The notes under the pieces are model-generated. The model was not told where the DNA came from and made no database searches. It saw only the letters and a program-made list of their open reading frames with translations. From Nitrospirota bacterium (lineage in GTDB: Bacteria > Nitrospirota > Thermodesulfovibrionia > Thermodesulfovibrionales > Dissulfurispiraceae), in assembly GCA_040758355.1 (NCBI GenBank), contig JBFLWF010000002.1, forward strand, positions 32,001 to 96,000: a stretch of DNA of 64,000 nt, given 5' to 3'. Positions within the stretch are counted from its first letter, which is position 1; the number at the start of each line of letters is the position of its first letter. Below, in pieces: positions 1,909 through 28,220 of this stretch. The translations under genes were made by a program, and so were the position numbers.

Positions 1909-2281
1909 TGAATTAAAGGCAATGGTTCTGGATTACATGGAAAAAGGGTTTCTTGAGAACATCATCGATATGTTCAGGCATGATGAAAGCCTTTTCCCAA
2001 TGATAATCGATATGATGAAGGACGAAAGGGTGCGTGTGAGGCTTGGGGCTACTGCCCTCGTGGAGGAGTTGATAAAGCTTAAGCCAGAGCCGCTCATAAG
2101 GATGATTCCAGATATTGCGGAACTCCTGAAGGATGAAAATCCGACTGTCCGGGGCGACGGGGCAAATCTTCTTGACATTATAAAACATCAGGATGCACTT
2201 CCTTTTCTTTTAATTGCCGGAAACGATGCTGATTCAAATGTGAGAGAAATCGTCAAAGACGCAATTCAGAATATCCAGTAA
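1901..2281 (+). CDS. Small HEAT-repeat protein
   Basis: ATG 1901 overlaps the trxB end; LKDENPTVRGDGANLL and DADSNVREIVKDAI are HEAT-like repeats. Confidence 0.7.
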   Translation: MDNELKAMVLDYMEKGFLENIIDMFRHDESLFPMIIDMMKDERVRVRLGATALVEELIKLKPEPLIRMIPDIAELLKDENPTVRGDGANLLDIIKHQDALPFLLIAGNDADSNVREIVKDAIQNIQ

Positions 2282-2372
2282 TCTTTGTTTAATTTTTATT
2301 TAATGGCAGGTTGATTTTTTGTAGGCGAATGTGCCATTATAAATACGGAGTTTCAGAAGTTTTTGAACTGGT

Positions 2373-2408
2373 AAGGCCACAAAGACTTTTAGCTTTGTGG
2401 CCTTTTTT
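2373..2408 (+). terminator. Terminator-like hairpin in the csp upstream region
   Basis: AAGGCCACAAAG...CTTTGTGGCCTT followed by a T-run. Confidence 0.6.
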
Positions 2409-2460
2409 ATTAAGGTAACAGTTTCTGGGGCTTTAGTTTGTAAGTAAGGAGGTAAAAGAA

Positions 2461-2661
2461 ATGGCTAATGGAACAGTGAAGTGGTTCAATGAATCCAAGG
2501 GTTTTGGCTTTATAACAAGCGAAGACGGCAGTGATGTCTTTGTCCACTATTCTTCCATCCAGAGCAATGGATTCAAGTCCCTTGCCGAGGGTGACTCAGT
2601 CAGCTTTGATACTGAAAAGGGACCGAAAGGCCCCAAGGCGATCAATGTAGTGAAGCTGTAA
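2461..2661 (+). CDS. cspA: Cold-shock protein
   Basis: [15 protein letters not shown] (RNP1), DVFVHYS (RNP2); SD AAGGAGGT. Confidence 0.95.
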
Positions 2662-3316: not shown

Positions 3317-4213
3317 TTAAATCCTTGCCTTTGCCGATTTTACGGTATTCTCAAGAAGCATTGCGATAGTTACAGGTCCTACACCGCCGGGCACAGGCGT
3401 AATCAGGGACGCCTTTTTCGATACGCTATCGAAATCTATATCACCAACCACACGGCTGTTTTCGAGGACATTTATTCCTATATCAACAACAACGACGCCG
3501 TCTTTTACCATGTCACCAGTGATGAGATTCGGCCTTCCTGCAGCAACGCATAAAATATCTGCCTGCCGCGTCATCTCTGCAAGATTCTTTGTCTCCCTGT
3601 GGCAGACAGTGACAGTTGCCTCTTTTGTCAAAAGCATGAGGGACAGGGGTTTTCCCACCGCGAGGCTCTTTCCTATTACAACAGCATGCTTTCCTTTTAT
3701 TTCCACATTATAATATTCAAGCAGCCTTATTACACCAAATGGCGTACACGGCAAGAAACCCAGATGTTGTGTTATTGCCGGATCGTACTGTTTTGAGTAA
3801 AGCTGGAGCGTTGATTCCTCAGCAGCAAACTTTCCTATTGGAATTGAGCCGAGGCCGTCAACATCCTTTTCAGGAAGTATTGAGTTTACGATTTTCCTGC
3901 TGTTTATCCTTCTCGGAAGGGGAAAGAACACGAGCAGCCCGTGAATGCGTTCATCGTTATTTATAGCATGTACAGAATTTAATAGTTCGTTCATGCTGAC
4001 CGATTCTGGAAACCTGTATTCGTAAGGTGTTATGCCTGTGCTTTTGCATGCCTTTAAGGTGGCAGAAAGATATTGCTTTGATGATAGGTTATCCCCTACG
4101 AGCATTAATGCGAGTCCTACATCAATGCCCATGCCGTCGAGCATCTCGACTTTCTGCTTTACATTGTTTTTTATCTCCTCTGCAAGTCCCTTTCCTTCCA
4201 TTATCTTTGCCAT
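3317..4213 (-). CDS. folD: Bifunctional methylenetetrahydrofolate dehydrogenase/cyclohydrolase
   Basis: PEKDVDG, PCTPFG, VGKPL, ITPVPGGVGPVT motifs. Confidence 0.93.
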   Translation of the reverse strand: MAKIMEGKGLAEEIKNNVKQKVEMLDGMGIDVGLALMLVGDNLSSKQYLSATLKACKSTGITPYEYRFPESVSMNELLNSVHAINNDERIHGLLVFFPLPRRINSRKIVNSILPEKDVDGLGSIPIGKFAAEESTLQLYSKQYDPAITQHLGFLPCTPFGVIRLLEYYNVEIKGKHAVVIGKSLAVGKPLSLMLLTKEATVTVCHRETKNLAEMTRQADILCVAAGRPNLITGDMVKDGVVVVDIGINVLENSRVVGDIDFDSVSKKASLITPVPGGVGPVTIAMLLENTVKSAKARI

Positions 4214-4214
4214 G

Positions 4215-4898
4215 CTATACCCCTTTTATTGCCTTTAAAAAGGCATCTGTATCTGAAAGGTCTTTCATTACCAAATCTGCGCCGGCTTCCACAAGGCTGC
4301 TGACAGAATAAGGCCCGGTGGCAACTGCAATGCAGGATGCACCGTATGGCTTTGCACAATGGACATCCCGTGGCGTATCGCCGACTATTATGCAGTCGTT
4401 GAAATTTATTTCTTTGCCGGAAATGCCTTTAAACCTTTCTAATGCGATTGGAAGCAGTTTATTTCTGTCCTCGTCATCATTGCCGAATGCGCCTGAAGGG
4501 AAATAGCTGTTCAATCCGAAAGGATCGAGCTTTATCCGCGCCCCCTGTTCGATATTTCCTGTAAGAAGTCCGAGTTGGTAATTGCCATTTCCGGATGTAA
4601 GCATTTTTAAAGCCTCTTTAATGCCGGGTTTGACATGCTTTTTGTCATTATTTATCTCTATGACGAGATTTTTTATGTATGTATTGATAATCTCGGGAAG
4701 TATTCCGTTTTCTGACGGCAGATTGTGTTTGGCAACGCCCTCCTTCATTATCTGGATATCCGTCTTTCCTGCCATGCTGATGCCTTCGAAGGCATTGTCA
4801 ACAGAAAAAAGTTCCTTGAATGCAAGGTCTAAAGAGCGTGTTCCTGCACCTCCTGAATCGATGAGCGTGCCGTCAATATCGAACAGTATGAGCTTCAT
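4215..4898 (-). CDS. HAD-superfamily hydrolase (phosphoglycolate phosphatase-like)
   Basis: LFDIDGTL motif I, LLTGN, VGDTPRD; ATG 4898 preceded by a promoter-like sequence. Confidence 0.85.
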   Translation of the reverse strand: MKLILFDIDGTLIDSGGAGTRSLDLAFKELFSVDNAFEGISMAGKTDIQIMKEGVAKHNLPSENGILPEIINTYIKNLVIEINNDKKHVKPGIKEALKMLTSGNGNYQLGLLTGNIEQGARIKLDPFGLNSYFPSGAFGNDDEDRNKLLPIALERFKGISGKEINFNDCIIVGDTPRDVHCAKPYGASCIAVATGPYSVSSLVEAGADLVMKDLSDTDAFLKAIKGV

Positions 4899-16436: not shown

Positions 16437-16689
16437 GGTTTTTTTAACTTACCCTTTACACAGGTAAAGAAATTGTCTGCAATTTACCTGTATAGAGGTA
16501 CAAAATGCGGGATGTGGAGATAGTATATAATAGCGGGAAAGGATTGCGAAATGGGATGCGATTATTAGACCGCATTTTTCTTGTTTGAAAAATAAGGATA
16601 ATTTAGGGGTATAATAAAAAAATTATTAAGCTGCTCGATTATTTTAAAAGAAAATCCATACAGATTATTTGAAGTATAAAAAATATATC

Positions 16690-16718
16690 TTGACAAACGT
16701 ATTCAGTTATTGTATGCT
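16690..16718 (+). promoter_or_regulatory. Sigma70-type promoter (sense) at the head of the defence island
   Basis: TTGACA-N17-TATGCT. Confidence 0.75.
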
Positions 16719-16724
16719 TTTCCC

Positions 16725-16799
16725 ATGAAGCATATTAAATCATTCAAAAAAAAGGCTCTGTGCCGCAAACACAGAGCCTTTTTTGTCCACTCGGGCTGA
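16725..16799 (+). CDS. Putative leaderless 24-aa leader peptide MKHIKSFKKKALCRKHRAFFVHSG
   Basis: ATG lies 6 nt after the -10 box; the ORF reads through the terminator hairpin. Confidence 0.4.
   Translation: MKHIKSFKKKALCRKHRAFFVHSG
16746..16784. terminator. Bidirectional intrinsic terminator
   Basis: A8-GGCTCTGTG-CCGCAAA-CACAGAGCC-T6. Confidence 0.8.
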
Positions 16800-16826
16800 G
16801 AGCCGGAGCGACCGTGGTTAAGTCTA
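16746..16826 (-). ncRNA. Predicted ~80-nt antisense sRNA
   Basis: Bounded by the minus-strand promoter (16832-16860) and the minus-strand U-tract of the bidirectional terminator; no ORF evident. Confidence 0.5.
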
Positions 16827-16831
16827 TTCGT

Positions 16832-16860
16832 AGAATATCAGTATCGAGTCCTCCTGTCAA
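16832..16860 (-). promoter_or_regulatory. Sigma70-type antisense promoter
   Basis: Reverse strand TTGACA(16860-16855)-N17-TATTCT(16837-16832). Confidence 0.7.
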
Positions 16861-16983
16861 TAAGCTCAGCCGCAGAAAAAAGGAGGTGATGCCCTGATAG
16901 CCCTTACTGACTGGGCACGCCAAAAGAGTTTCTTTGAAACCTTCGGCGGCTGAGAACGAGAAGTTTTAGGAGGACGTAAAGGT

Positions 16984-17280
16984 ATGGCTTCAATACCGCA
17001 AGTGATTCAGGAAATGGATGACCATATTAAAAACAATGGTGGGGGATATTCATCATGGTACGCAGGCATTGCCTCTGATCCTCGCAAGCGGCTGTTCAAC
17101 GATCATAGTGTTCAGGAAAAAGGTGACGCCTGGATATACCGCGACTGCGGATCGGACATAGCCGCAAGACAAGTCGAAGAACATTTTCTCAAGAAGGGTT
17201 GCGACGGCGATACGGGTGGAGGCGATGCAACGACAAAGTACGCATATGCCTACAAAAGGAATAGCCACACCAATCCTTAG
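16984..17280 (+). CDS. Small GIY-YIG-like protein (98 aa)
   Basis: SD AGGAGG; WYAGIASDPRKRLFNDH and ARQVE resemble the YxG-x-D-x3-R-x4-H...E core of GIY-YIG nucleases. Confidence 0.6.
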   Translation: MASIPQVIQEMDDHIKNNGGGYSSWYAGIASDPRKRLFNDHSVQEKGDAWIYRDCGSDIAARQVEEHFLKKGCDGDTGGGDATTKYAYAYKRNSHTNP

Positions 17281-17292
17281 TCGGTAGTTTGA

Positions 17293-17322
17293 AGAGGCCG
17301 TCTTATATGATAGGCGGCCTCT
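17293..17322. terminator. GC-rich hairpin after the GIY-YIG-like gene (weak U-tract)
   Basis: AGAGGCCGTCT...AGGCGGCCTCT. Confidence 0.45.
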
Positions 17323-17341
17323 CTTAAAAAATAGAGGGGTT

Positions 17342-17935
17342 ATGAAAAAGAAAATAACAGAAATAGCGGATATTCAGCTTGGGTATCAGTTCAGGAAAAA
17401 GATTGAGCCTGCCGGCGATGGCACTAACCGTGTAATCCAGATTCGGGACTTTGATGAAAATCATATACTTAACAAAGCGGGTCTCGCATCTGTTACACTT
17501 GATAAACCGATGGATAAGTATCTAATTAACAAAGGCGATGTTCTGTTTCTTTCACGCGGGCATCGCAATTGGGCAGCCCCAATTATATATGATTTGAAAG
17601 ATACGGTGGCTGTAAGCCACTTCTTTGTAATCAAGCCCAAGCAGAATAATATTTTGTCGGAGTATCTTGCCTGGTATATCAATCAGACCCCGGCGCAGGA
17701 ATACCTTCACAACATAGCCAAGCGCGGCACTCATATGCCGCTAATCCCCCTGTCAGCTTTCAAGGGGCTTGCAATAGAAATCCCGGATATAAAGACTCAG
17801 GAAAAAATTGTTGAATTGAGCAAGCTGATGGAAAAAGAAAAAAAGCTTCTCGCTGAACTTCAGGTGAAGAAATCACTTCTTATTAACGCAGTATGTTTAA
17901 AGGCATCCAAGAGCAAAAAGGAGAAGATAAAATGA
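17342..17935 (+). CDS. Half-size type I R-M specificity subunit (single TRD plus helix)
   Basis: IADIQLG, INKGDVLF, LSEYLAWYIN, IEIPDIKTQEKIV then a coiled coil. Confidence 0.8.
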   Translation: MKKKITEIADIQLGYQFRKKIEPAGDGTNRVIQIRDFDENHILNKAGLASVTLDKPMDKYLINKGDVLFLSRGHRNWAAPIIYDLKDTVAVSHFFVIKPKQNNILSEYLAWYINQTPAQEYLHNIAKRGTHMPLIPLSAFKGLAIEIPDIKTQEKIVELSKLMEKEKKLLAELQVKKSLLINAVCLKASKSKKEKIK

Positions 17936-19491
17936 CAACGAAAGTATCTCAGGACGAAATCAATAATGTTGCGTGGGCGGCATGCGATACCTTCCGCGGT
18001 CCAGTTGACCCTGCACAGTACAAGGACTATATCCTTGTGATGCTGTTTTTAAAGTATATCTCCGATGTGTGGAAAGATCATTATGAAGAATACCAAAAGC
18101 AATACGGCAATAATGAAGAACGTATCAGACGGAAACTCGAACGGGAGCGTTTTACACTGCCTTATATAGATTATGAAGACAAAGACACAAAGCAGAAAGA
18201 AAAATTTCATGCGGATTTTTACAGCCTTTATGAGCGGAGAACCAGAGCGAATATAGGCGAACTCATTAATATTGTTCTGGATGCCATTGAAGAATCAAAC
18301 AAGGCCAAGCTCGAAGGCGTGTTCCGCAACATTGATTTCAACAGCGAGGCAAATCTTGGAAAGACCAAAGACCGTAACCGCCTCCTGAAACATCTTCTCG
18401 AAGATTTCAATAAACCTCAGCTCGATATGCGGCCAAGTCGTGTATCCGAAGATGTAATCGGGAATACTTACATTTATCTTATTGAACGCTTTGCCTCTGA
18501 TGCCGGCAAAAAGGCCGGAGAGTTTTATACGCCTCACAAGGTCTCGGAACTGCTTGCAAAACTTGTCCAGCCGAAAAAGGGTGACCGCATATGCGATCCG
18601 GCTTGCGGTTCGGGTGGCCTTTTGATTGAGGCAGCTAAAGAAATAGGCAGCAGCGATTTTGCCTTGTTTGGCATGGAAGTGAATGGGAGCACATGGGCGC
18701 TGGCAAGGATGAACATGTTCCTGCACGGCATGGACGCCGCGCGCATAGAATGGTGCAATGCGCTGACAAATCCTGCATTGGTTGAGAAAGACCGTCTCAT
18801 GAGATTCAATATCGTTGTCGCTAATCCACCTTTTTCTCTCGACAAATGGGGTGCAACAGAGGCAGAACATGACCGCTTTAACCGCTTCTGGCGCGGCATG
18901 CCGCCAAAAAGCAAAGGCGATTATGCCTTTATCAGCCATATGATAGAAGCGGCCATTGAAAAAGAAGGCCGGGTAGCAGTGGTTGTACCGCACGGCGTAC
19001 TTTTCCGTGGAGGAGCCGAGGGGCGCATCCGTCAAAAACTAATTGAAGATAATCTGCTTGATGCAGTTGTGGGACTTCCAGCTAATCTCTTTCCCACAAC
19101 ATCAATTCCAGTTGCAATTCTCATCTTCGACTGTTCGCGAGAAAAAGGCGGGATAAATGAAAAGCGTAAAGATATACTTTTCATTGACGCAAGCAGGGAT
19201 TATCAGTCAGCAAAGACCCGGAATCTTCTGCTCGAAGAACATATCGAGAAGATTGTTGCCGCATACAAAACCCGCAAAGATGTTGATAAATACGCCCACG
19301 TCGTAACATTTGATGAGATAAAAGAAAATGATTTCAACCTCAACATCCCGCGTTATGTGGATACCTTTGAGGAAGAGGCGGAAATAGATGTTGCAGCAGT
19401 GCAGAAAGAGATTGAGCAGTTAGAAGCGGAGTTGGTAGAAGTGAGGGGGAAGATGAAGCAATACTTAGAGGAGCTTGGACAGCATGCTTAA
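17932..19491 (+). CDS. hsdM: Type I R-M adenine methyltransferase
   Basis: GEFYTP, DPACGSGG, NPPF, PHGVLFRG, NLNIPRY. Confidence 0.95.
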   Translation: MTTKVSQDEINNVAWAACDTFRGPVDPAQYKDYILVMLFLKYISDVWKDHYEEYQKQYGNNEERIRRKLERERFTLPYIDYEDKDTKQKEKFHADFYSLYERRTRANIGELINIVLDAIEESNKAKLEGVFRNIDFNSEANLGKTKDRNRLLKHLLEDFNKPQLDMRPSRVSEDVIGNTYIYLIERFASDAGKKAGEFYTPHKVSELLAKLVQPKKGDRICDPACGSGGLLIEAAKEIGSSDFALFGMEVNGSTWALARMNMFLHGMDAARIEWCNALTNPALVEKDRLMRFNIVVANPPFSLDKWGATEAEHDRFNRFWRGMPPKSKGDYAFISHMIEAAIEKEGRVAVVVPHGVLFRGGAEGRIRQKLIEDNLLDAVVGLPANLFPTTSIPVAILIFDCSREKGGINEKRKDILFIDASRDYQSAKTRNLLLEEHIEKIVAAYKTRKDVDKYAHVVTFDEIKENDFNLNIPRYVDTFEEEAEIDVAAVQKEIEQLEAELVEVRGKMKQYLEELGQHA

Positions 19492-20668
19492 GTATGGTCA
19501 TATCCTTGCTGATGGTTGGCAATGGAAGAAACTTTCAAAAATTGCACAGATTAACCCTCCCCCGCAAAAGGCAGAAGATGAAAGCGAAGTCACATTTTTG
19601 GGTATGGCGGATGTGTCAGAAGCAGGGAAGATCATTAACGCGCAGATACGGAAATTTAGAGAGGTCTCGTTAGGATTTACTTCGTTTAAAGGAAATGACG
19701 TTCTCATTGCGAAAATTACTCCATGTTTTGAAAATGGAAAAGGTTGTCTTGCTGAAGGCCTAAAAAACAATGTAGGGTTTGGAAGTACAGAATTTCATGT
19801 ATTGCGTCCAACACCTGAAGTATTGCCGCGATATCTTCATTTATTAACAGTAACTCATCATTTTCGTGGTATTGGTGAAATTTATATGACAGGTAGTGCA
19901 GGGCAAAAAAGAGTACCCGCAGATTTTTTGAGAGATTATATTATCCCATTGCCCCCAATTGCCGAACAAGAAAGAATAATAGACATAATTTTAAGCTGGA
20001 GCCACGCCATCGAAAAAACAGAAAAGCTGATTGAGGCGAAAAGATCATGGCATGTTGCTCTTGCAAATAAGCTGCTCAGCAGAAAATCCAGTGCAGTCCC
20101 GCTAAAGAAAATTCTTAAATTGACCCTGCGAGATGTTGCAAAACCAGACAAGCCATATTGGGCTTTGGGAATCAGGAGTCACGGCAAAGGCACATTCCGG
20201 CGTTTTATAGAAAATCCGGCGTCCGTTGCAATGGACACTCTTTATCGTGTAAGGCATGATGACCTTATCGTAAATATCACATTTGCTTGGGAAGGCGCTA
20301 TAGCATTCGTTGACAAGGCAGATGAAGATTGTTTGGTTTCGCACAGATTTCCGACATTTGAGATTGATATTAATAAAGCTTTGCCTGCTTATCTGCGGCA
20401 TGTAATAGTTCAAAAAAGATTTGTCCGAAATCTCGCTTTAATATCACCCGGTGGCGCAGGGAGAAACCGCGTGTTGAACAAAACTGATTTTCTTAACTTG
20501 AAAATAGCTCTGCCTGAAATTAAGGAACAGGAGAAAATCGGCGATGTCTTAAACACATCGCTTCGGGAGATATCTCTCCTCGAAGCAAAACTCGAATTGC
20601 TGAAAAAGCAAAAGCGCGGCTTGATGCAGAAACTGTTGACCGGCGAGTGGCGGGTGAAGGTAGAGTGA
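19484..20668 (+). CDS. hsdS: Type I R-M specificity subunit
   Basis: Two TRDs (KITPCFENGK/GSTEFHV; second TRD), PLPPIAEQ and LPEIKEQ, KRGLMQKLLTG. Confidence 0.92.
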   Translation: MLKYGHILADGWQWKKLSKIAQINPPPQKAEDESEVTFLGMADVSEAGKIINAQIRKFREVSLGFTSFKGNDVLIAKITPCFENGKGCLAEGLKNNVGFGSTEFHVLRPTPEVLPRYLHLLTVTHHFRGIGEIYMTGSAGQKRVPADFLRDYIIPLPPIAEQERIIDIILSWSHAIEKTEKLIEAKRSWHVALANKLLSRKSSAVPLKKILKLTLRDVAKPDKPYWALGIRSHGKGTFRRFIENPASVAMDTLYRVRHDDLIVNITFAWEGAIAFVDKADEDCLVSHRFPTFEIDINKALPAYLRHVIVQKRFVRNLALISPGGAGRNRVLNKTDFLNLKIALPEIKEQEKIGDVLNTSLREISLLEAKLELLKKQKRGLMQKLLTGEWRVKVE

Positions 20669-20740
20669 GGAAAAAACCAATGGACAGCGTGGACTGAATG
20701 GACAACGGAATGGACAAACAACTAAAGAAAGGATTTTGAA

Positions 20741-21343
20741 ATGCTTGAAAATGAAGGTCTGATTCCAAAGCATGGCGGCTACCGCAAGCTGAAGAGCTAT
20801 CAGATTGCTCAGCTTGTTTATGATGTGACAGTGCGGTTTTGCAACAACTACATAGACCGCAAATCGCGCACGCACGACCAGATGGTTCAGGCAGCGCGAA
20901 GCGGGGTTCAAAACATTGCCGAAGGCAGTCAGGCATCCGGCACATCGAAAAAGACCGAACTGAAACTTACTAATGTTGCACGCGCCAGTCTTGAAGAACT
21001 GCGTCTTGATTATGAAGATTATTTGCGGCAGCGGCGCCTGCCGCTCTGGAATCGTGAAGACCCTCGCCGTGCGGAGCTAATTGAGCGGAGGTTCACGACT
21101 GCTGATGCGGTTGAGGAATGGGTGAAAGAAAAGGCAGAGAAGTCCACAATGTCCACTTCGTCCACGCAGTCCACAAGTTCTTCTCTCTCTGAAATCGCGG
21201 CTAATGCTGCGCTGGTGTTGATTACGGTTGCCTGCAGTTTATTGGATCGCCAATTGGCTGCGCAGGCTGCTGCATTTGAAAAAGAAGGCGGCTTTACAGA
21301 AAGATTGTATCGCACGCGCAGCCAGACAAGGAAACGCACATGA
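20741..21343 (+). CDS. Four-helix-bundle protein (23S rRNA IVS/Avd-like) with C-terminal suffix domain
   Basis: GGYRKLKSYQ, DQMVQAARSGVQNIAEG, ARASLEELRLDY, EGGFTERLY. Confidence 0.85.
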   Translation: MLENEGLIPKHGGYRKLKSYQIAQLVYDVTVRFCNNYIDRKSRTHDQMVQAARSGVQNIAEGSQASGTSKKTELKLTNVARASLEELRLDYEDYLRQRRLPLWNREDPRRAELIERRFTTADAVEEWVKEKAEKSTMSTSSTQSTSSSLSEIAANAALVLITVACSLLDRQLAAQAAAFEKEGGFTERLYRTRSQTRKRT

Positions 21344-24300
21344 AAAGCTTCAGGTTCAATGAAAAATATTTATCACAAATCCCTGCATTGCAGCAGCTCA
21401 TAAATCTTGGGTTCAACTACCTTACACCTGAGCAGGCACTAACAGAGCGTCAGGGCAGATTTGGAAATGTTTTGCTTGAGGGAATACTGCGGAAGCAACT
21501 TAAGTCCATTAACCGCATTCAGCACAGAGGGCAGGAATATCTTTTCAGCGAAGAGAATATCCAGTCTGCAATCCAGAAACTTAAGAATGTTAAATGGGAT
21601 GGGCTGCAAAAGACTAATGAGGCTGTTTATGACATGCTCACTCTGGGGACATCGCTGGAGCAGACCATTGAAGGGGATACAAGGAGCTATACACTGAGAT
21701 ATATTGACTGGGGTGATTGGAAGAACAACATTTATCATGTTACTGCGGAATTCAGTGTCGAGCGAACCAGAAGCGATGAGACTACCCGGCCCGATATTGT
21801 ACTTTTCGTAAACGGCATTCCCTTTGCAGTGATAGAATGCAAGTCGCCGAAGGAGGACATAAATAAGGCAGTCGAACAGACTATCCGCAACCAGCAGGAT
21901 GAATTTATCCCCAGACTCTATTCATACTCGCAGCTTGTCATAGGAATAAACAAAAACGCTGCCGTTTATGCTACTGCAGGTACTGCGAGGAGGTTCTGGA
22001 GCAGTTGGCAGGAACTTCGGTACAAAGATAAAGATGTCGAGGTAAGCGTTAAAAGACATCTTAAGCCTGAGATAAAGGATGAACTTTTTTCAGGTGACTT
22101 CGGTCATGCGCGAAAATTCTTTGATGATATGGAAAAAGAAGGCGGCCGTGAAATTACAGAGCAGGACAGAGCTGTCTTCAGCCTCTGCAAGCCGGAGCGA
22201 TTGTTGGAGCTTGCCCATAAATTCACTATCTTTGACGGTGGCATCAAAAAGATAGCCCGCTATCAACAATACTTCGTTGTCAAATCAACGATTGACAGGG
22301 TGAAGCAGTTCGATTCGGAAGGACGGCGCAAGGGCGGAATAATCTGGCATACACAGGGATCTGGAAAATCTCTCACAATGATATGGCTTGCGAGAAACCT
22401 TGCCCTTGACCCTGACATCTCGAATCCACGGATTGTTCTTGTAACAGACCGCGTTGATCTTGACAGGCAGCTCAGCAATACCTTTGCCGCCTGTGGACTT
22501 GATAAGCACCGGGCAAAAACAGGACGGGACCTTCTTGACCTTGTTTCTGAGAAAAAGGCTGCTATTGTAACAACCTTGGTTCACAAGTTTGACAAGGCTC
22601 TTAATGTCAAAAAATATCAGGATGAATCCATAGATATCTTTATGCTTGTTGACGAGGCTCACCGGACTCAATTTAAAAACCTTCACGCGCGTATGCGCCA
22701 GATGTTTCCAAGAGCCTGTTATCTGGGGTTTACCGGAACTCCGCTTATGAAGAAGGAGAAAAACAACTTCATTAAGTTCGGCGGTTTGATTGAACCTCAC
22801 TATTCGATAAAACAGGCTGTAAAGGATAAACAGGTTGTGCCGCTTCTGTATGAAGGACGCTATGTGGAAATGGAGCAGGACAAGGCAGCAATAGACCTGT
22901 GGTTTGAAAGGCATACTCAGGGGCTTACGCCTGAACAAAGGGCTGACTTGAAAAAGAAATATGCACGTGCAGAGATGTTGAACAAGGCGGATAAGGTTAT
23001 CTATATGAGAGCCTTTGATATCAGCGAACACTACAGACAGAACTGGCAGAATACGCCGTTTAAGGCGCAACTCGTAGCTCCAAGTAAACTGGCTGCACTT
23101 AAGTATCATGAATTTTTGAACGAGTTTGGTCATGTGACCTCTGAGGTAATTATCTCTCCTCCTGATCAGCGCGAGGGTTATGAAGAGGTTGAGGAAGGAC
23201 CAGTTGATGAGGTTGTGAAATTCTGGCAGAAGATGATGAAGCGATACGGTTCAGAGGAAGAATACAATAAACAGATTACGAGTCAGTTTTTGTATGCAGA
23301 AGAACCTGAAATCCTGATTGTGGTGGATAAACTACTGACGGGTTTCGACGCACCGAGAAACACAGTCATGTATCTTTGCCGCACTTTGCGAGAGCATACG
23401 CTGCTTCAGGCCATTGCCCGCGTGAACAGACTATATGAAGATGAAGCGCATAATCCAAAGGAGTACGGTTATATAGTTGATCATGCCAGCATTTTAGGCG
23501 AGTTGGATAAGGCCTTGACGATGTATGCCGATGCAGGGCTCGAAGATTTTGATGAGGAGGATTTGGAAGGCACGCTCACTTCGATTCATCGGGAAGTGGC
23601 CAAATTGCCGCAGGCTTATTCCGACCTCTGGGATATTTTTAAGGAAGTCAGAAACCGTTATGATGAGGAGGTATACGAGTTACTGCTTGGCGACGAAGCT
23701 CTGCGGGAGGAGTTCTATCAGCGACTGGCAGAGTACAGTAAGATTCTTGCAATGGCTCTTTCAACTGAGCAGTTTATAATAAATACCCCCGACGAAAAGC
23801 TGATGCAATATAAGAATGCGCTTAAGCGATTCCATAACCTGAAGGCGTCTGTTAAGCTTCGTTATGCAGAGACCATTGACTACCGTGATTATGAACCGAA
23901 GATCAAGAAGCTGCTTGATACCCATATTCAGGCGAATCAGGTTATCCAGCTCAATGAGCCGGTGAATATTTTTGACGATAAGATGTTCTGGCAGGTGAAA
24001 GAGGAGCAGGGCGTCTATGTCACAAAAACAACGGCATCAAGAGCGGATGCCATCGCACATGCCGTAAAGAAAGTAATAACTGAAAAGATGGAGGAGGACC
24101 CTGCCTTTTATGAAAAATTCTCAAAACTGATTCAGCAAGCAATTGACGCATACAGGGCTAAGCGAATCTCCGACATAGAATACTTAAAGAGGGTCACTGA
24201 AATTCGCGACAAGGTGGTAACCCGCGAGCATGATGATATTCCTGCGAAGCTGAATAAGAACGAGGATGCTCAGGCATTTTACGGCGTTCTGAAACCGATC

Positions 24301-24561
24301 TTTGATGGGCAACAGTTTGATGCACAGACATGTGAAGATGTGTCAGCGGATGCCGCCTTAGCTATTCAGAATATTCTGAAATGTAACTGGAAGGTTCATT
24401 TTTGGAATGATGCAGACGCTCAGAAGAAGGCTATTAATGATATTGACGATTTCCTTTATGACGAGATAAAGGGCAGGCGGGGTATTCCGCTTTCTACCGA
24501 GCAGATGGACGAGATTATTGAGCGGGTAATGCATCTTGCTCAACGCAGGATGTCATTATGA
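21340..24561 (+). CDS. hsdR: Type I restriction endonuclease subunit R
   Basis: PDIVLFVNGIP..IECK nuclease motif, HTQGSGKS, DEAHR, FTGTP, LTGFD, QAIARVNR. Confidence 0.95.
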   Translation: MKSFRFNEKYLSQIPALQQLINLGFNYLTPEQALTERQGRFGNVLLEGILRKQLKSINRIQHRGQEYLFSEENIQSAIQKLKNVKWDGLQKTNEAVYDMLTLGTSLEQTIEGDTRSYTLRYIDWGDWKNNIYHVTAEFSVERTRSDETTRPDIVLFVNGIPFAVIECKSPKEDINKAVEQTIRNQQDEFIPRLYSYSQLVIGINKNAAVYATAGTARRFWSSWQELRYKDKDVEVSVKRHLKPEIKDELFSGDFGHARKFFDDMEKEGGREITEQDRAVFSLCKPERLLELAHKFTIFDGGIKKIARYQQYFVVKSTIDRVKQFDSEGRRKGGIIWHTQGSGKSLTMIWLARNLALDPDISNPRIVLVTDRVDLDRQLSNTFAACGLDKHRAKTGRDLLDLVSEKKAAIVTTLVHKFDKALNVKKYQDESIDIFMLVDEAHRTQFKNLHARMRQMFPRACYLGFTGTPLMKKEKNNFIKFGGLIEPHYSIKQAVKDKQVVPLLYEGRYVEMEQDKAAIDLWFERHTQGLTPEQRADLKKKYARAEMLNKADKVIYMRAFDISEHYRQNWQNTPFKAQLVAPSKLAALKYHEFLNEFGHVTSEVIISPPDQREGYEEVEEGPVDEVVKFWQKMMKRYGSEEEYNKQITSQFLYAEEPEILIVVDKLLTGFDAPRNTVMYLCRTLREHTLLQAIARVNRLYEDEAHNPKEYGYIVDHASILGELDKALTMYADAGLEDFDEEDLEGTLTSIHREVAKLPQAYSDLWDIFKEVRNRYDEEVYELLLGDEALREEFYQRLAEYSKILAMALSTEQFIINTPDEKLMQYKNALKRFHNLKASVKLRYAETIDYRDYEPKIKKLLDTHIQANQVIQLNEPVNIFDDKMFWQVKEEQGVYVTKTTASRADAIAHAVKKVITEKMEEDPAFYEKFSKLIQQAIDAYRAKRISDIEYLKRVTEIRDKVVTREHDDIPAKLNKNEDAQAFYGVLKPIFDGQQFDAQTCEDVSADAALAIQNILKCNWKVHFWNDADAQKKAINDIDDFLYDEIKGRRGIPLSTEQMDEIIERVMHLAQRRMSL

Positions 24562-25271
24562 GAAGTTACAGAAGCAGTATTAAATATGGAAAAGAGAAAA
24601 TAACCTTTGATGTTTCACACGCAGACCGGAAAACCATGGAGATAGGCGTGCATCCGGACATTCGGGTGATAGTAAAAGCGCCGGAGGGTGTAGCGCCGGA
24701 AGTTGTTAAGAAACGTGTCGCAAGGCGGGCCAGATGGATAAAGAAGCAAATAGACTATTTTAGAAAGTTTGAGCCGCGCACTCCTGATAGATGTTATGTC
24801 GGGGGCGAAACACACCTGTTCCTCGGTCGGCAATATAGATTGAAGATAAGAAAGCATAACAGTTGTGAAGTGAAGCTTAAGGGTGGATATTTTTATGTAA
24901 CGACTTCCGCTCCTAATAATACTCAGAAGATCAGGGATATGCTCTTTGATTGGTATAAGTCTCGCGCTATTGTTATATTCTCCAGACGTCTTGAAGTTTG
25001 TTATGAAGCGGCTAAAAAATTGGATATCGGGTTTCCAAAACTGCGCGTTAAAAAGATGTCTAAAAGGTGGGGTAGTTGCGGTAAATCTGGTGATATTATT
25101 TTGAATACCGAACTTGTTAAAGCGCCTATATATTGTATTGATTACGTAATCATGCATGAGCTTTGTCATCTGAGAGTGCACACGCATAATAATGAATACT
25201 ATCGGCTTTTGTCGAAATATATGCCTGATTGGGAGAAGAGGAAAGATAGACTGGAGAAGGTTTTTTTATGA
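24558..25271 (+). CDS. YgjP/DUF45-like (M48/SprT-type) zinc metallohydrolase
   Basis: RWGSC and YVIMHELCH (HExxH); typical hsdR neighbour. Confidence 0.88.
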   Translation: MRSYRSSIKYGKEKITFDVSHADRKTMEIGVHPDIRVIVKAPEGVAPEVVKKRVARRARWIKKQIDYFRKFEPRTPDRCYVGGETHLFLGRQYRLKIRKHNSCEVKLKGGYFYVTTSAPNNTQKIRDMLFDWYKSRAIVIFSRRLEVCYEAAKKLDIGFPKLRVKKMSKRWGSCGKSGDIILNTELVKAPIYCIDYVIMHELCHLRVHTHNNEYYRLLSKYMPDWEKRKDRLEKVFL

Positions 25272-25310
25272 AACAGCGTGATTATTATATGTGTGGGAGG
25301 TGTAAATAGT

Positions 25311-25868
25311 ATGGGGATGTTTGACACTATCTATTTTGATAAACCATATCTTTGTCCGAAGTGCAGGGCAAAGATAGCCTCTACCCAGACAAAGGCCTTT
25401 GAGCAGGCATTGATTAATTTTCATGTGAAGGACTGTGCAGCCCATGCAGAGGAAATAAGAATCATTAAAGAAGAACTATTTTGTAATAAGTGTTCAAGAT
25501 TTACTGGGCAACATGTTTACATTGCCATATTCAGAGGCATTCTTGCGGGCGTGGCTGATTCATTGCAAGAAGCTAAGGACATGGTTGATGACATGAATTT
25601 TGAGAAATTGATTCTGTGGTATCACGATTTATATAAGGAATACGACAGGACAGTTAGAGAAAAAGAGGGTGTCATTAGGTTTCTGGGAAGTGTGGTCGAA
25701 TGGTTCGAACAAGGCCGCCATAAAAAGAAAAAGGATAAGGCGGGAGGTATCGGCGATATCCTTTTCCTTTTTGATAGGGAATACCTGAAGGGAGCGAAAG
25801 ACCCTCTTGAGGCGATAAAGAGATTTCTGGCAGCGAAACAAAAAGAGAAAAAGAACGGGACATATTAG
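25311..25868 (+). CDS. Hypothetical zinc-ribbon protein
   Basis: MGMFD start with SD GGGAGG; CPKC...QTK...CNKC. Confidence 0.65.
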   Translation: MGMFDTIYFDKPYLCPKCRAKIASTQTKAFEQALINFHVKDCAAHAEEIRIIKEELFCNKCSRFTGQHVYIAIFRGILAGVADSLQEAKDMVDDMNFEKLILWYHDLYKEYDRTVREKEGVIRFLGSVVEWFEQGRHKKKKDKAGGIGDILFLFDREYLKGAKDPLEAIKRFLAAKQKEKKNGTY

Positions 25869-25869
25869 A

Positions 25870-26460
25870 ATGACCAAAACTGAAACCGAGAAAGTATTTT
25901 TCAAGGATATAATTCGCTACTGCACCTTTAAAAAAGTAAAAGATGCCTTGCTGGAACTTTATCCCGACCAAAAGAAAGTAGTAAAAGGATACAAATATGT
26001 TTTTGAAACCTTAAAGCTTATGAGACTCAGATACAGTAAAGACGGGATGGTTATTGATATACGAAGAGTCGGCAGAGGCAGGAATGCATATTTCTCTGTC
26101 AGCGGTGTTTGTAGTCAGGATGGAGTGAAACAGTCGTATGCCATTGAATATATGCCCTGGTCGAAGTGGCTCGGATGTGAAGTGGATAGAAAAGTTTTAA
26201 GGAAAATGACGAGGGAAGAAATAGCAGCTCATTGCCTATGGGAGATGACCTTTGCCGGCTTTACTCAGGACAGGATCAGGCGTGAGATAAATAAATTGAG
26301 AAAGCGGGTAGAGGATCTTAAAGCAGGCAGGGTGAAGACTATTCCCCACGAAGAAGTAATGAAAATGCTTAAAGATAAATTAGGTAATATCAACAACCGA
26401 CAGCTCATGGCTCTGATGGAGGATAGGCAAATCTTTGCCTATCCCCAGTTTATTTATTAG
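25870..26460 (+). CDS. Hypothetical protein (resembles DUF6557-type proteins from memory; unverified)
   Basis: YAIEYMPWSKWLG...EIAAHCLWEMTFAGF; starts 1 nt after the preceding stop. Confidence 0.6.
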   Translation: MTKTETEKVFFKDIIRYCTFKKVKDALLELYPDQKKVVKGYKYVFETLKLMRLRYSKDGMVIDIRRVGRGRNAYFSVSGVCSQDGVKQSYAIEYMPWSKWLGCEVDRKVLRKMTREEIAAHCLWEMTFAGFTQDRIRREINKLRKRVEDLKAGRVKTIPHEEVMKMLKDKLGNINNRQLMALMEDRQIFAYPQFIY

Positions 26461-26471
26461 TTGAAACCGAT

Positions 26472-26519
26472 GGGCTTAGGTCTGTTCCTTGACATTTCAC
26501 TATTTATTAGAAACTCGGC
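26472..26519. repeat. ~50-bp direct repeat, copy 1
   Basis: GGGCTTAGGTCTGTTCCTTGACATTTCACTATTTATTAGAAACTCGGC. Confidence 0.65.
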
Positions 26520-26615
26520 AACATTTGTACACCAGCATTTTCAAGTCAACAAATAAATAAAGTTATTGCGGGAAACCTGACTTAGCTGATCATTGCAGGG
26601 TAAAAGTCTTTCCCA

Positions 26616-26890
26616 TTACGCCCTCAGAATCCGCTGTTGTAAAAGCTCTTCGCAGTTGCGCCGGACGTCAAGCACGGCGTGGATGAAAACGGTTTTGCCA
26701 CTGACTTCATATATGATGCGATAGGGTTTGAAAAATATTTCCCTGAAATCGAGTATTCCCAACCGCTGCATCTCAGGCGGGTGATTGCCTCGGGCAGGCA
26801 TTGTTTCAAGGGAAGTCATTGCCTTTTGTATGTTGTCAAGCAGATGCTCTGCCTTCCGCGGAGAGTCGTTATTCGCTACATACCTGTAGA
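26616..26890 (-). pseudogene. 5'-truncated near-identical duplicate of the RelE/ParE toxin at 27452-27778
   Basis: Same sequence from IYRYVANND to RILRA; first ~17 codons and the antitoxin are missing. Confidence 0.8.
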
Positions 26891-26905
26891 TTGTCAACAA
26901 TGACT

Positions 26906-26954
26906 GGGGTCAGGTCTTGCTTCTTGCCATTTCATCATTTATTAAAAACTCGGC
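26906..26954. repeat. ~50-bp direct repeat, copy 2
   Basis: GGGGTCAGGTCTTGCTTCTTGCCATTTCATCATTTATTAAAAACTCGGC. Confidence 0.65.
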
Positions 26955-27020
26955 TTGGCAGAGTCTTGCTGAAGCACTCAAACAGTGCAATAGAGCAGAA
27001 GCGCGGAAGGGGAATTTAAA

Positions 27021-27236
27021 TTACTGAGCGTGTAATGCGAGGTCTTCGAGTGTAACTTTCTTGAACACGTCCTTTGTCCCAAAACGCTTCACTGCATCTA
27101 ATATCTCAATGCCTGCTATTTTACCTTCGGCATCGTAATCCACTGCGATCCCTTCAGCAACATGCTTGGTTGTTACTGTTGTCTCTATGAAACGGATGTA
27201 CAGAGCATCAACCTCAGAGTCATATGTTATTCTCAC
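27021..27236 (-). CDS. DUF2283-family putative antitoxin
   Basis: YDSEVDALYI...VDYDAEGKIAGIEILDA. Confidence 0.85.
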   Translation of the reverse strand: MRITYDSEVDALYIRFIETTVTTKHVAEGIAVDYDAEGKIAGIEILDAVKRFGTKDVFKKVTLEDLALHAQ

Positions 27237-27251
27237 CCTTATCCCTCCTTC

Positions 27252-27305
27252 TCAAATGAAAATAAGTTGTTCTTTTGCATGTCCTGATAACCTTATTGGT
27301 TTCAT
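27252..27305 (-). pseudogene. Remnant of a DUF4258-like partner toxin (MKPIRLSGHAKEQLIFI*)
   Basis: Family-typical N-terminus (xIRLSxHAKE) directly upstream of DUF2283; only 17 codons long. Confidence 0.55.
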
Positions 27306-27388
27306 TGTAAGCACATTTTATACTAAACGCGTCAATTTTTCAGCACTAATCTTTGCCTTCTTCAATCTCATCACAGTGTTTGGTGTTT

Positions 27389-27439
27389 GGGATCAGCTTT
27401 TGATTTTATATTTACATAATTTTTTAGAAACCCAGCTTG
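27389..27439. repeat. ~50-bp direct repeat, copy 3 (degenerate)
   Basis: GGGATCAGCTTTTGATTTTATATTTACATAATTTTTTAGAAACCCAGCTTG. Confidence 0.5.
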
Positions 27440-27451
27440 TCGATACTTGAA

Positions 27452-27778
27452 TTACGCCCTCAGAATCCGCTGTTGTAAGAGGTCTTCGCAGTTGCGCCGG
27501 CCGTCAAGCACGGCGTGGATGAAAACGGTTTTGCCCTTGATTTCATATATGATATGATAGGGTTTGAAGAATATTTCTCTGAAATCGAGTATTCCCAATC
27601 GCTGCATCTCAGGCGGGTGATTGCTCCGTGCAGGCATTGTTTCAAGGGAAGTCATTGCCTTTTGTATGTTGTCAATCAGATGCTCTGCCTTCCGCGGAGA
27701 GTCGTTATTCGCTACATACCTGTAGATTGCGTAAAGGTCGCCTGACGCTACATTATCTATGCGGACTTCGTATTTCAT
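27452..27778 (-). CDS. RelE/ParE-family toxin
   Basis: A.GDLYAIYRY, LETMPAR, PYHIIYE, VLDGRR. Confidence 0.88.
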   Translation of the reverse strand: MKYEVRIDNVASGDLYAIYRYVANNDSPRKAEHLIDNIQKAMTSLETMPARSNHPPEMQRLGILDFREIFFKPYHIIYEIKGKTVFIHAVLDGRRNCEDLLQQRILRA

Positions 27779-28059
27779 GCCTTCCCGGCAGAGCGTATTT
27801 TCTTTTTCAATTCTCCGAATGCCTGATGAAGGGGTTTATGCCTGCCTTCAAGCATATCTTTTCTTCCCATTGCCAGGATCTTCAGCATAGCCATGCTTTC
27901 GCGGTCTTTTTCATATTCCTTTATGTCCTGAATTATTGCCCGCGCCTCTCCGTTTACGGTTACGACAACTGGATTGCCGGTTTCGGATATTTCTCCGATT
28001 ATTTCCGACGCGTGAGATTTAATATGGCTTATGGGTTTGACGGCTGCGCTCAGTTTCAT
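27775..28059 (-). CDS. Phd/YefM-family antitoxin
   Basis: KPISHIKSHASEII...PVVVTVNGEARAII; 4-bp overlap with the toxin. Confidence 0.88.
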   Translation of the reverse strand: MKLSAAVKPISHIKSHASEIIGEISETGNPVVVTVNGEARAIIQDIKEYEKDRESMAMLKILAMGRKDMLEGRHKPLHQAFGELKKKIRSAGKA

Positions 28060-28220
28060 CTCTTCCTCCTTAAATGACTAAAATTAAGTCTTTATTCAGT
28101 CTATCAAATTTTAATGAGAAATTAAAGCATTTTTTGAGCGCAGGGACCTGTCCGAGGCTCACTGAAGCATGCCTGCCTTACATAAATCTCTCAATTTAAG
28201 TTAGAATAGCACCAATCTAT

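Follow-up and report, generated by a model that had tools for sequence, protein, structure and literature searches.

Ahead of a small GIY-YIG-like gene in the window (the whole stretch of 64,000 nucleotides analysed), sequence comparison indicates a conserved, uncatalogued leader under the control of an antisense RNA, which would work like the control regions of plasmids pSK41 and pT181 while lying outside those families. Comparison of homologous loci shows the antisense gene and how it folds, the competing pairings and the association with the 98-aa gene (hereafter the payload), and we consider it likely that a pre-emptor-type translational switch, run by the cis-antisense RNA, controls this nuclease-like gene (Table 1). 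The locus supplies a predicted RNA family that is new and has a defined switch, a candidate HsdS_short operator and a nuclease-like accessory gene; plasmid-style pre-emptor control would extend to a defence-island gene, and the locus could be a type I toxin-antitoxin (TA) system or a restriction-modification (RM) guard with a GIY-YIG effector.

The payload is the first gene of an hsdS_short-hsdM-hsdS-hsdR operon, within an island whose flanking genes we take, from their translations, to be aroA and cmk. The island site is empty in genomes G003 and G004 and holds different inserts in G001 and G002. All motif coordinates given in an earlier, sequence-only reading of this DNA read exactly as stated, and its list omitted the internal Shine-Dalgarno (SD)-like box, both palindromes and the hairpin 3' of the payload. 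A GC-rich hairpin follows the gene in the window and in all nine other leader loci that were folded (10/10); hsdS_short starts beyond it in the window, 61 nt past the payload stop. The leader is single-copy in its own genome, where no second copy was found. The island content also includes ParE/Phd genes: two near-identical parE copies, one of them 5'-truncated, lie around a DUF2283 gene together with one phd antitoxin gene (26616-28059), an arrangement that looks like a local duplication. At the left edge of the island, a GCGGGATG...TATATAATAG...GGGAAGG stretch (16506-16545) resembles the start of the G001 insert and, in part, that of G002.

Table 1. Features of the leader, the payload gene and the surrounding island (window positions).
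Feature	Position	Strand	Remark
Island between aroA and cmk, about 11.8 kb	16443..28219	.	
Palindrome O1, GAAGTAT-N5-ATACTTC type, 5' of promoter	16671..16689	.	candidate operator; accompanies hsdS_short promoters
Sense sigma70-type promoter, TTGACA-17-TATGCT	16690..16718	+	predicted start about 16725
Leaderless ORF, 24 codons (ATG 16725, stop ends 16799)	16725..16799	+	peptide not conserved
Palindrome O2, over transcription start	16727..16745	.	candidate operator
SL1, antisense-RNA terminator	16746..16784	-	may leak-terminate sense RNA in the window copy too
Predicted antisense RNA, about 79 nt	16746..16825	-	12-nt single-stranded 5' tail, anti-a loop hairpin, terminator
SL2 with box a (GGCTGAG, 16794-16800)	16790..16808	+	pre-emptor and antisense target
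Convergent promoter, TTGACA-17-TATTCT, extended -10 TG	16832..16860	- (16860-16832)	
Anti-SD, GTCCTCCT	16848..16855	+	pairs with the gene's SD
Box a*, CTCAGCCGC	16865..16873	+	switching strand
Internal SD-like box	16880..16888	+	no properly spaced start here; candidate anti-SD decoy (a:a* pseudoknot)
Box a2, GCGGCTGAG	16946..16954	+	OFF-fold partner of a*
Shine-Dalgarno of the 98-aa gene, AGGAGGAC	16968..16975	+	P(unpaired) 0.0 in full-length fold
98-aa GIY-YIG-like protein	16984..17280	+	GIY-type strand at residues 84-92
GC-rich hairpin 3' of the 98-aa gene, no U-tract	17292..17325	+	candidate 3' stabiliser or processing site
hsdS_short, 197 aa, one specificity domain	17342..17935	+	candidate O1/O2 binder
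hsdM, hsdS, four-helix-bundle gene, hsdR, YgjP/M48 gene	17932..25271	+	

The sequence-only reading had proposed a short antisense RNA ending at the leader hairpin, and the comparison across loci bears out a predicted cis-antisense RNA whose promoter, fold and terminator are conserved with compensatory changes. A minus-strand -35 element followed by TA at exactly 17 bp was found in 12 of 13 leaders and TAnnnT in 9/13, the final T of the -10 element being absent from 4/13; over the 1932 TTGACA sites of the genome, the background is 173 (9%) for TA and 84 (4%) for TAnnnT. Across leaders the predicted RNA measures 71-84 nt and has two hairpins, with a hairpin loop complementary to box a and, in most copies, a short single-stranded tail. 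The antisense strand from 16826 to 16740 folds with a z-score of -4.51, and in 12/12 leaders the minus strand outfolds the sense strand and has the greater number of G-U pairs. Folding and covariation over homologous upstream regions, the check attached to that proposal, recovered a conserved structure with compensatory changes: in an 8-row alignment 97.4% of cells pair, five pairs are changed on both sides and the covariation score was reached by 0/500 shuffles, figures that are biased in favour of the structure because it was derived from the same rows. A U-run is present on the antisense side of SL1 in all 12 leaders and nearly absent from the sense side in L006 and L108, so the hairpin appears to be primarily an antisense terminator, and the bidirectional attenuator proposed earlier does not extend to the leaders in general.

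It is very improbable that the leader consists of chance motifs in AT-rich intergenic DNA or is a functionless relic. Promoter-like matches do occur at chance frequency (a consensus scan, uninformative by itself, gave 7 sites against 6.2 expected) and short-pattern matches elsewhere are attributable to chance, but conservation and covariation over divergent loci speak against such an origin, and the covariation largely refutes it. A YUNR loop was set aside as a feature: the four loci examined first have it, but several later ones do not.

Two further claims of that reading, the lock between anti-SD and SD and the choice of CTCAGCCGC between two pairings that exclude each other, are likewise supported by conservation with compensatory changes in the aligned loci. 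Box a* can pair upstream with a or downstream with a2 in 10/10 tested leaders, and the anti-SD can pair with the SD of its own gene in 10/10, with compensatory changes in L104 and L108. The anti-SD can also pair with the internal SD-like box, which is present in all 10 tested leaders and is a candidate decoy. Mean duplex energies of own versus cross combinations were -16.3 versus -12.4 kcal/mol for a:a*, -19.3 versus -12.8 for a*:a2 and -11.4 versus -8.9 for anti-SD:SD; the box sequences of L006, L104 and L108 are wholly different from those of the other leaders. In no leader did more than 62 of 1000 shuffles match the a*:a2 duplex, and a:a* was weak against shuffles in 3/10, the window among them (101, 96 and 178 of 1000).

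The 260-base leader as a whole (16725-16990) folds at -93.3 kcal/mol (z -4.24), with 0/200 shuffles equally stable. Nascent folds contain a:a* at ends 16875, 16890 and 16945, do not hold it at 16920, and contain a*:a2 with a closed SD from 16960. The equilibrium fold keeps the SD closed with the antisense region free and with it blocked (P unpaired 0.0 in both). Imposing a:a* carries a penalty of 11.8 kcal/mol and raises the unpaired probability of the SD to no more than 0.29; the ON state would therefore have to be kinetic or pseudoknotted, pseudoknots being unscorable by the folding program. The SD stem is followed by GTAAAGGTATG, without a U-tract, as in the other leaders whose upstream regions were inspected, which argues for a translational outcome. 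In L101 and L103, the internal SD precedes a well-spaced ATG that opens an ORF of 2-4 codons (MG, MGWT) overlapping a2, and a ribosome on this short ORF would disturb the OFF stem.

The mechanism that we infer from these features, including its transcription, its kinetics, the pseudoknot, the identity of the repressor and the nuclease activity, would run as follows. In the nascent mRNA, a would pair with a* before a2 exists, and the internal SD-like box might next capture the anti-SD in a pseudoknot, giving a metastable ON state in which the SD of the gene is open and ribosomes can load. Binding of the 80-nt antisense RNA to SL2/box a would free a* for a2, and with a*:a2 formed the anti-SD would close on the SD, leaving the gene silent in the minimum-energy OFF fold. 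Such a switch would set a threshold, with a steady state devoid of nuclease and a pulse whenever the antisense RNA is missing or outrun, either on entry into a new cell or upon derepression of the sense promoter. HsdS_short, with or without HsdM, acting on O1/O2 would provide a second layer.

The sequence-only reading had instead supposed that translation of the 24-codon leader governs termination at the hairpin and that the antisense RNA blocks this translation, which we regard as improbable. The window copy does have a U7 sense tail, and an ATG frame runs across SL1 in 7/8 leaders with at least five sense-side U as against 0/4 with fewer, a coincidence that may reflect a local anti-termination effect. 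However, the sense U-run consists in part of the stem's own A-U pairs, and the ATG lies within a palindrome half-site and may be a by-product. Furthermore, the frames found in 7/12 leaders, 24-92 codons long, have no common frame and no SD, and five leaders have no frame at all, so that a leader peptide is not a general feature of these loci.

The leader is rare. It was found at 13 other distinct loci, two of them truncated at contig ends and 12 of them with hsdS_short-hsdM behind the leader, in organisms that include Syntrophorhabdus, Smithella and Hydrogenedentota (three carriers). Among 54 examined loci encoding homologs of the 98-aa protein (L013 and L139, matching residues 48-73 only, were dropped), 13 have the leader (10 distinct), and 12 of these 13 continue into hsdS_short-hsdM. 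The leader of L098, cut by a contig end, was called by eye, that of L107 has no 5' part, and L006 and L104, whose sequences did not go into the covariance model, scored 35-37 bits. No leader was found in the remaining 41 homolog loci, several of which have little upstream DNA; the near-identical L005, L099 and L100 are the only leaderless loci with the gene inside such an hsdS_short-hsdM operon. All 13 first-round carriers encode a payload at least 54% identical to that of the window, and the leader occurs in 13/18 loci with 53% payload identity or more; the carriers are thus related and the loci are not independent.

A search for hsdS_short, with matches in 16/391 and 14/391 genomes, gave 30 new loci, in which the covariance model detected three more leaders (L233, 76.6 bits; L216, 51.8 bits; L218, 51.4 bits). 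Beyond known copies, the model returned only 22-29-bit matches from 151 order-level and 151 class-level genomes. A pattern search of 401 genomes gave 10 matches versus 4 for the control, none of them new; a loose pattern marked 83 stretches in viral contigs, at the level of chance among the matches listed and none with E < 0.05 using the DNA profile, and a stricter leader pattern gave 0 matches. The DNA query in 60 relatives yielded no copy and one 24-base match only. The Rfam scan suggested in the sequence-only reading assigned the leader to no catalogued family: at the gathering threshold, Rfam 15 recognised only tRNAs in the window and nothing in 11 other loci, and the best sub-threshold match was RefA9 (35.4 of 49 bits, 16725-16781 only). 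Full-text searches of the accessible literature found no description of the element, which could be present in supplementary motif tables of comparative RNA screens.

The leader is kept together with a GIY-YIG-like gene and is lost or degraded without one, which suggests that the switch serves the nuclease gene. The window's sisters in the hsdS_short tree (34 rows; L245 omitted as short), L231 and L232, have no payload; they fall in a supported clade of six rows, the other four of which have both leader and payload. In L231 an 83-nt relic of the leader, 71% identical and decayed, is joined to the hsdS_short start. In L216, where a 16-codon payload remnant persists with its stop overlapping the hsdS_short start, the promoter, antisense gene and SD lock are kept and a:a* reaches only -6.5. 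The earlier suggestion that the RM operon might be under the switch is thus at odds with these relatives, which lost or degraded the leader and kept their RM genes, and the same decay in L231 and L216 makes it less likely that the leader acts for the operon head whatever the payload. An intact leader in L233 precedes a 111-aa protein (2151-2483, minus strand) whose GIY-YIG motifs follow the usual order (Pfam E 0.002); 12-13% of its Atlas clusters match PF01541, and it has no BLAST similarity to the 98-aa protein.

A broader proposal, in which the switch controls the whole type I RM operon during establishment and the small gene is a passenger, appears slightly less probable than the leader-peptide model. 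It would be consistent with the hsdS_short-hsdM genes that follow 12/13 leaders, with the retained L216 elements ahead of a 16-codon ORF overlapping hsdS_short, and with a plausible polarity from an untranslated first gene. However, 27/30 hsdS_short loci have no intact leader, the closest hsdS_short relatives (L231 and L232) lost it along with the payload, and in the window hsdS_short lies behind the 3' hairpin.

The GIY-YIG likeness of the payload noted earlier is strengthened by profile matches within its family and by the alignment of a permuted strand. PF01541 scores 14.2 of 22.6 bits on the window protein, below the curated cut-off and over profile positions 15-40 only, and matches 52/123 family members at E up to 0.05 (best 2e-5). 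With residues 84-92 moved before the core, the mean score over 29 GIY-YIG domains was 10.1 bits versus 6.3 in native order; the best four of 29 permutation windows tried all cover these residues, and their Tyr aligns to the GIY Tyr. The GIY-YIG constellation of Tyr, Tyr-x-Gly, Arg, His and Glu is present in the family, at positions that we take to be the putative catalytic ones: Y88, G28 and H41 are each conserved in 123 of 123 members, Y26 in 118, E65 in 116 and R36 in 110. The AlphaFold model is alpha/beta (pLDDT 93). Its best PDB fold match (Z 4.6) is an unrelated protein, Foldseek found no GIY-YIG match in the PDB, and GIY-YIG proteins rank second and third in BFVD with weak support (prob 0.85 and 0.41, E 0.2-0.33); these aligners follow sequence order, and a permuted fold could escape them. 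We conclude from the sequence features that the 98-aa protein is probably a circularly permuted GIY-YIG protein and a putative nuclease.

The family comprises 784 clusters (E up to 1e-10) and has no model of its own in Pfam, NCBIfam (0) or PADLOC 2.0 (0 families). No homologs were found in PLSDB or INPHARED, and 13 longer relatives inspected for fusions contain no Pfam family. A viral contig (L003) carries two tandem genes of this family (3984-4280 and 4568-4891), identical over the first 70 residues and without a leader. Other leaderless homologs have as neighbours what we take to be a TIR-domain-like pair (L009, 2991-4270) and HTH, RelE-like and Fic genes (L012, 1546-4297).

An equivalent of the sense promoter is present in 11 of the 12 leaders that have a 5' end, and among the 84 TTGACA-17-TAnnnT sites of the 2.77-Mb genome, the window holds the sole convergent pair 120-260 nt apart. 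The palindrome pair flanks the sense promoter in 8/10 scored leader or homolog promoters. At payload-less hsdS_short promoters, 9/22 attain a combined palindrome score of 16 of 20 as against 0/245 promoter-like controls, an optimistic contrast because the motif AGTAW-N5-WTACT was adjusted after viewing the same upstream regions; 4/26 hsdS_short loci had no promoter match, and the window pair scores 15. These pairs occur at hsdS_short promoters with or without a leader (the window, L214, L231, L232, L236, L244, L245 and others), with a half-site of AGTAT among close relatives and of AGTAA among distant ones. The most likely predicted repressor acting on O1/O2, in an additional layer of control, is HsdS_short by itself or together with HsdM, which makes the pair a candidate site of HsdS_short autoregulation; the role of hsdS_short is described as open in the available text of PMC10030836.

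Control by SOS/LexA was discarded: G000 has no PF01726 match, and there is no evident SOS gene in the top 45 palindrome hits. The palindrome profile has 82 genome matches versus 52-57 in shuffled sequence, and O1/O2 are not members of a host regulon. In L145 (G174:C20), a 98-aa homolog has its own promoter between both palindromes without the RNA leader or nearby RM genes, and the same genome holds hsdS_short at another place (L235). In L106, the sense promoter and first palindrome are apparently duplicated in tandem 5' of the leader (475-560).

As to the purpose of the pulse, an accessory defence or guard nuclease is a tentative first choice; an establishment or mobility factor is somewhat less probable, and an addiction toxin or any other role is in each case doubtful. 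A lethal toxin fits entry poorly and most relatives have no antitoxin gene, so the release of an accessory defence nuclease upon derepression seems, tentatively, a better reading than a classical addiction module. It is unlikely that the locus is a type I TA system of the hok/sok or aapA/IsoA kind, in which a closed, stable mRNA reservoir would be activated later, the antisense RNA would destroy the active form and loss of the island would kill the cell. The 5'-overlapping antisense RNA of predicted antitoxin size, the closed SD in the full-length RNA, the strong 3' hairpin after the gene in 10/10 loci, the decay of the leader once the gene is lost and the conservation of the putative catalytic residues would all be consistent with such a system. 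However, no leader ORF is conserved in the manner of mok, and the OFF fold lies within the leader, so trimming at the 3' end would not be expected to open it. The antisense gene is missing from 41/54 homolog loci, and sister loci have readily lost the payload gene.

More speculative than the TA model is a guard of type I restriction, in which an Ocr/ArdA-type DNA mimic would displace an HsdS_short-HsdM repressor and the permuted GIY-YIG nuclease would stop the infection. By inactivating the RM complex, such a mimic from a phage or plasmid would also pull the repressor off the two palindromes at the promoter, whereupon the mRNA would outrun the antisense threshold, the pre-emptor switch would open and the nuclease would be made; the RNA switch itself would have been borrowed from replicon copy-number control.

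The proposed translational switch most closely recalls plasmid replication control. The RNAI of pSK41, as described in PMC5703833, is about 83 nt long, forms two stem-loops behind a single-stranded 5' tail and is complementary to the leader far upstream of the start; once bound, it induces an RBS-hiding stem without termination, so that size, shape and outcome match those predicted here. The target of pSK41 RNAI is a replication initiator, whereas here it would be a small nuclease-like gene of an RM island in the chromosome, the internal SD-like box being an addition, and Rfam indicated no sequence kinship between the two. The same source describes pT181 repC/RNAI and pIP501 repR/RNAIII, in which the proximal arm of a downstream stem is paired with a pre-emptor as long as no antisense RNA is bound; their outcome is transcription termination, whereas no U-tract follows the SD stem here, and pIP501 adds the CopR repressor on the sense promoter, for which the candidate here is HsdS_short rather than an HTH protein (PMC5703833). 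The leader shares with the pSK41/pT181 type a predicted 70-90-nt counter-transcript with its own promoter, two hairpins and a terminator, and an antisense-covered box that competes for the proximal arm of the SD stem, a:a* being weak in 3/10; in place of a replication initiator beside an origin, it is followed by the GIY-YIG-like payload and then RM genes. In I-complex repA/repB/RNAI, the antisense RNA blocks an activating long-range pairing, and rep requires a conserved leader peptide that the window leader does not have (PMC10286972).

Type I TA systems with a 5'-overlapping antitoxin, including hok/sok and symE/symR (PMC3874152), aapA1/IsoA1 (PMC5416894) and timP/TimR (PMC13000454), are described in these sources as having a long structured leader overlapped by a short antisense RNA and an SD closed in the primary transcript, and timP is activated through a structural switch with a pseudoknot (PMC13000454). 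The window differs in that the payload is neither a membrane peptide nor SymE, no leader ORF is conserved and the genome has no LexA match. Control at the RNA or operator level is known from the RM loci EcoRI and Eco29kI (PMC3874152, PMC12707154), RptR (PMC12255303) and AhdI (PMC2275141), all unlike the present case: EcoRI and Eco29kI are type II with reverse promoters in the R gene, RptR is an alpha-helical repressor that binds TAGCTA, and AhdI involves methylation of one promoter site. PrrC and PARIS, as outlined in PMC12707154, are accessory nucleases linked to type I RM and activated at the protein level, whereas release here is predicted to proceed through transcription and RNA folding.

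The window has a single-domain hsdS before hsdM and a full hsdS, and in this it resembles the staphylococcal hsdS_short-hsdM-hsdS_long type I RM variant, with its single-domain hsdS of about 190-197 aa before hsdM, a likeness of gene order and domain type, sequence kinship aside; hsdR comes first there, and the available text mentions no leader, nuclease gene or operator (PMC10030836).

Among the 22-29-bit matches that were inspected, the leader layout was seen in L156 only. Upstream of a 436-aa Rep_trans-like ORF (Pfam E 6e-5), this locus (G554:C242, 595-745) shows a terminator hairpin, a minus-strand TTGACA, pairings resembling a, a* and a2 at -15.7 and -12.0 kcal/mol, and an internal SD-like box; its layout makes replicon control a possible origin of the switch.
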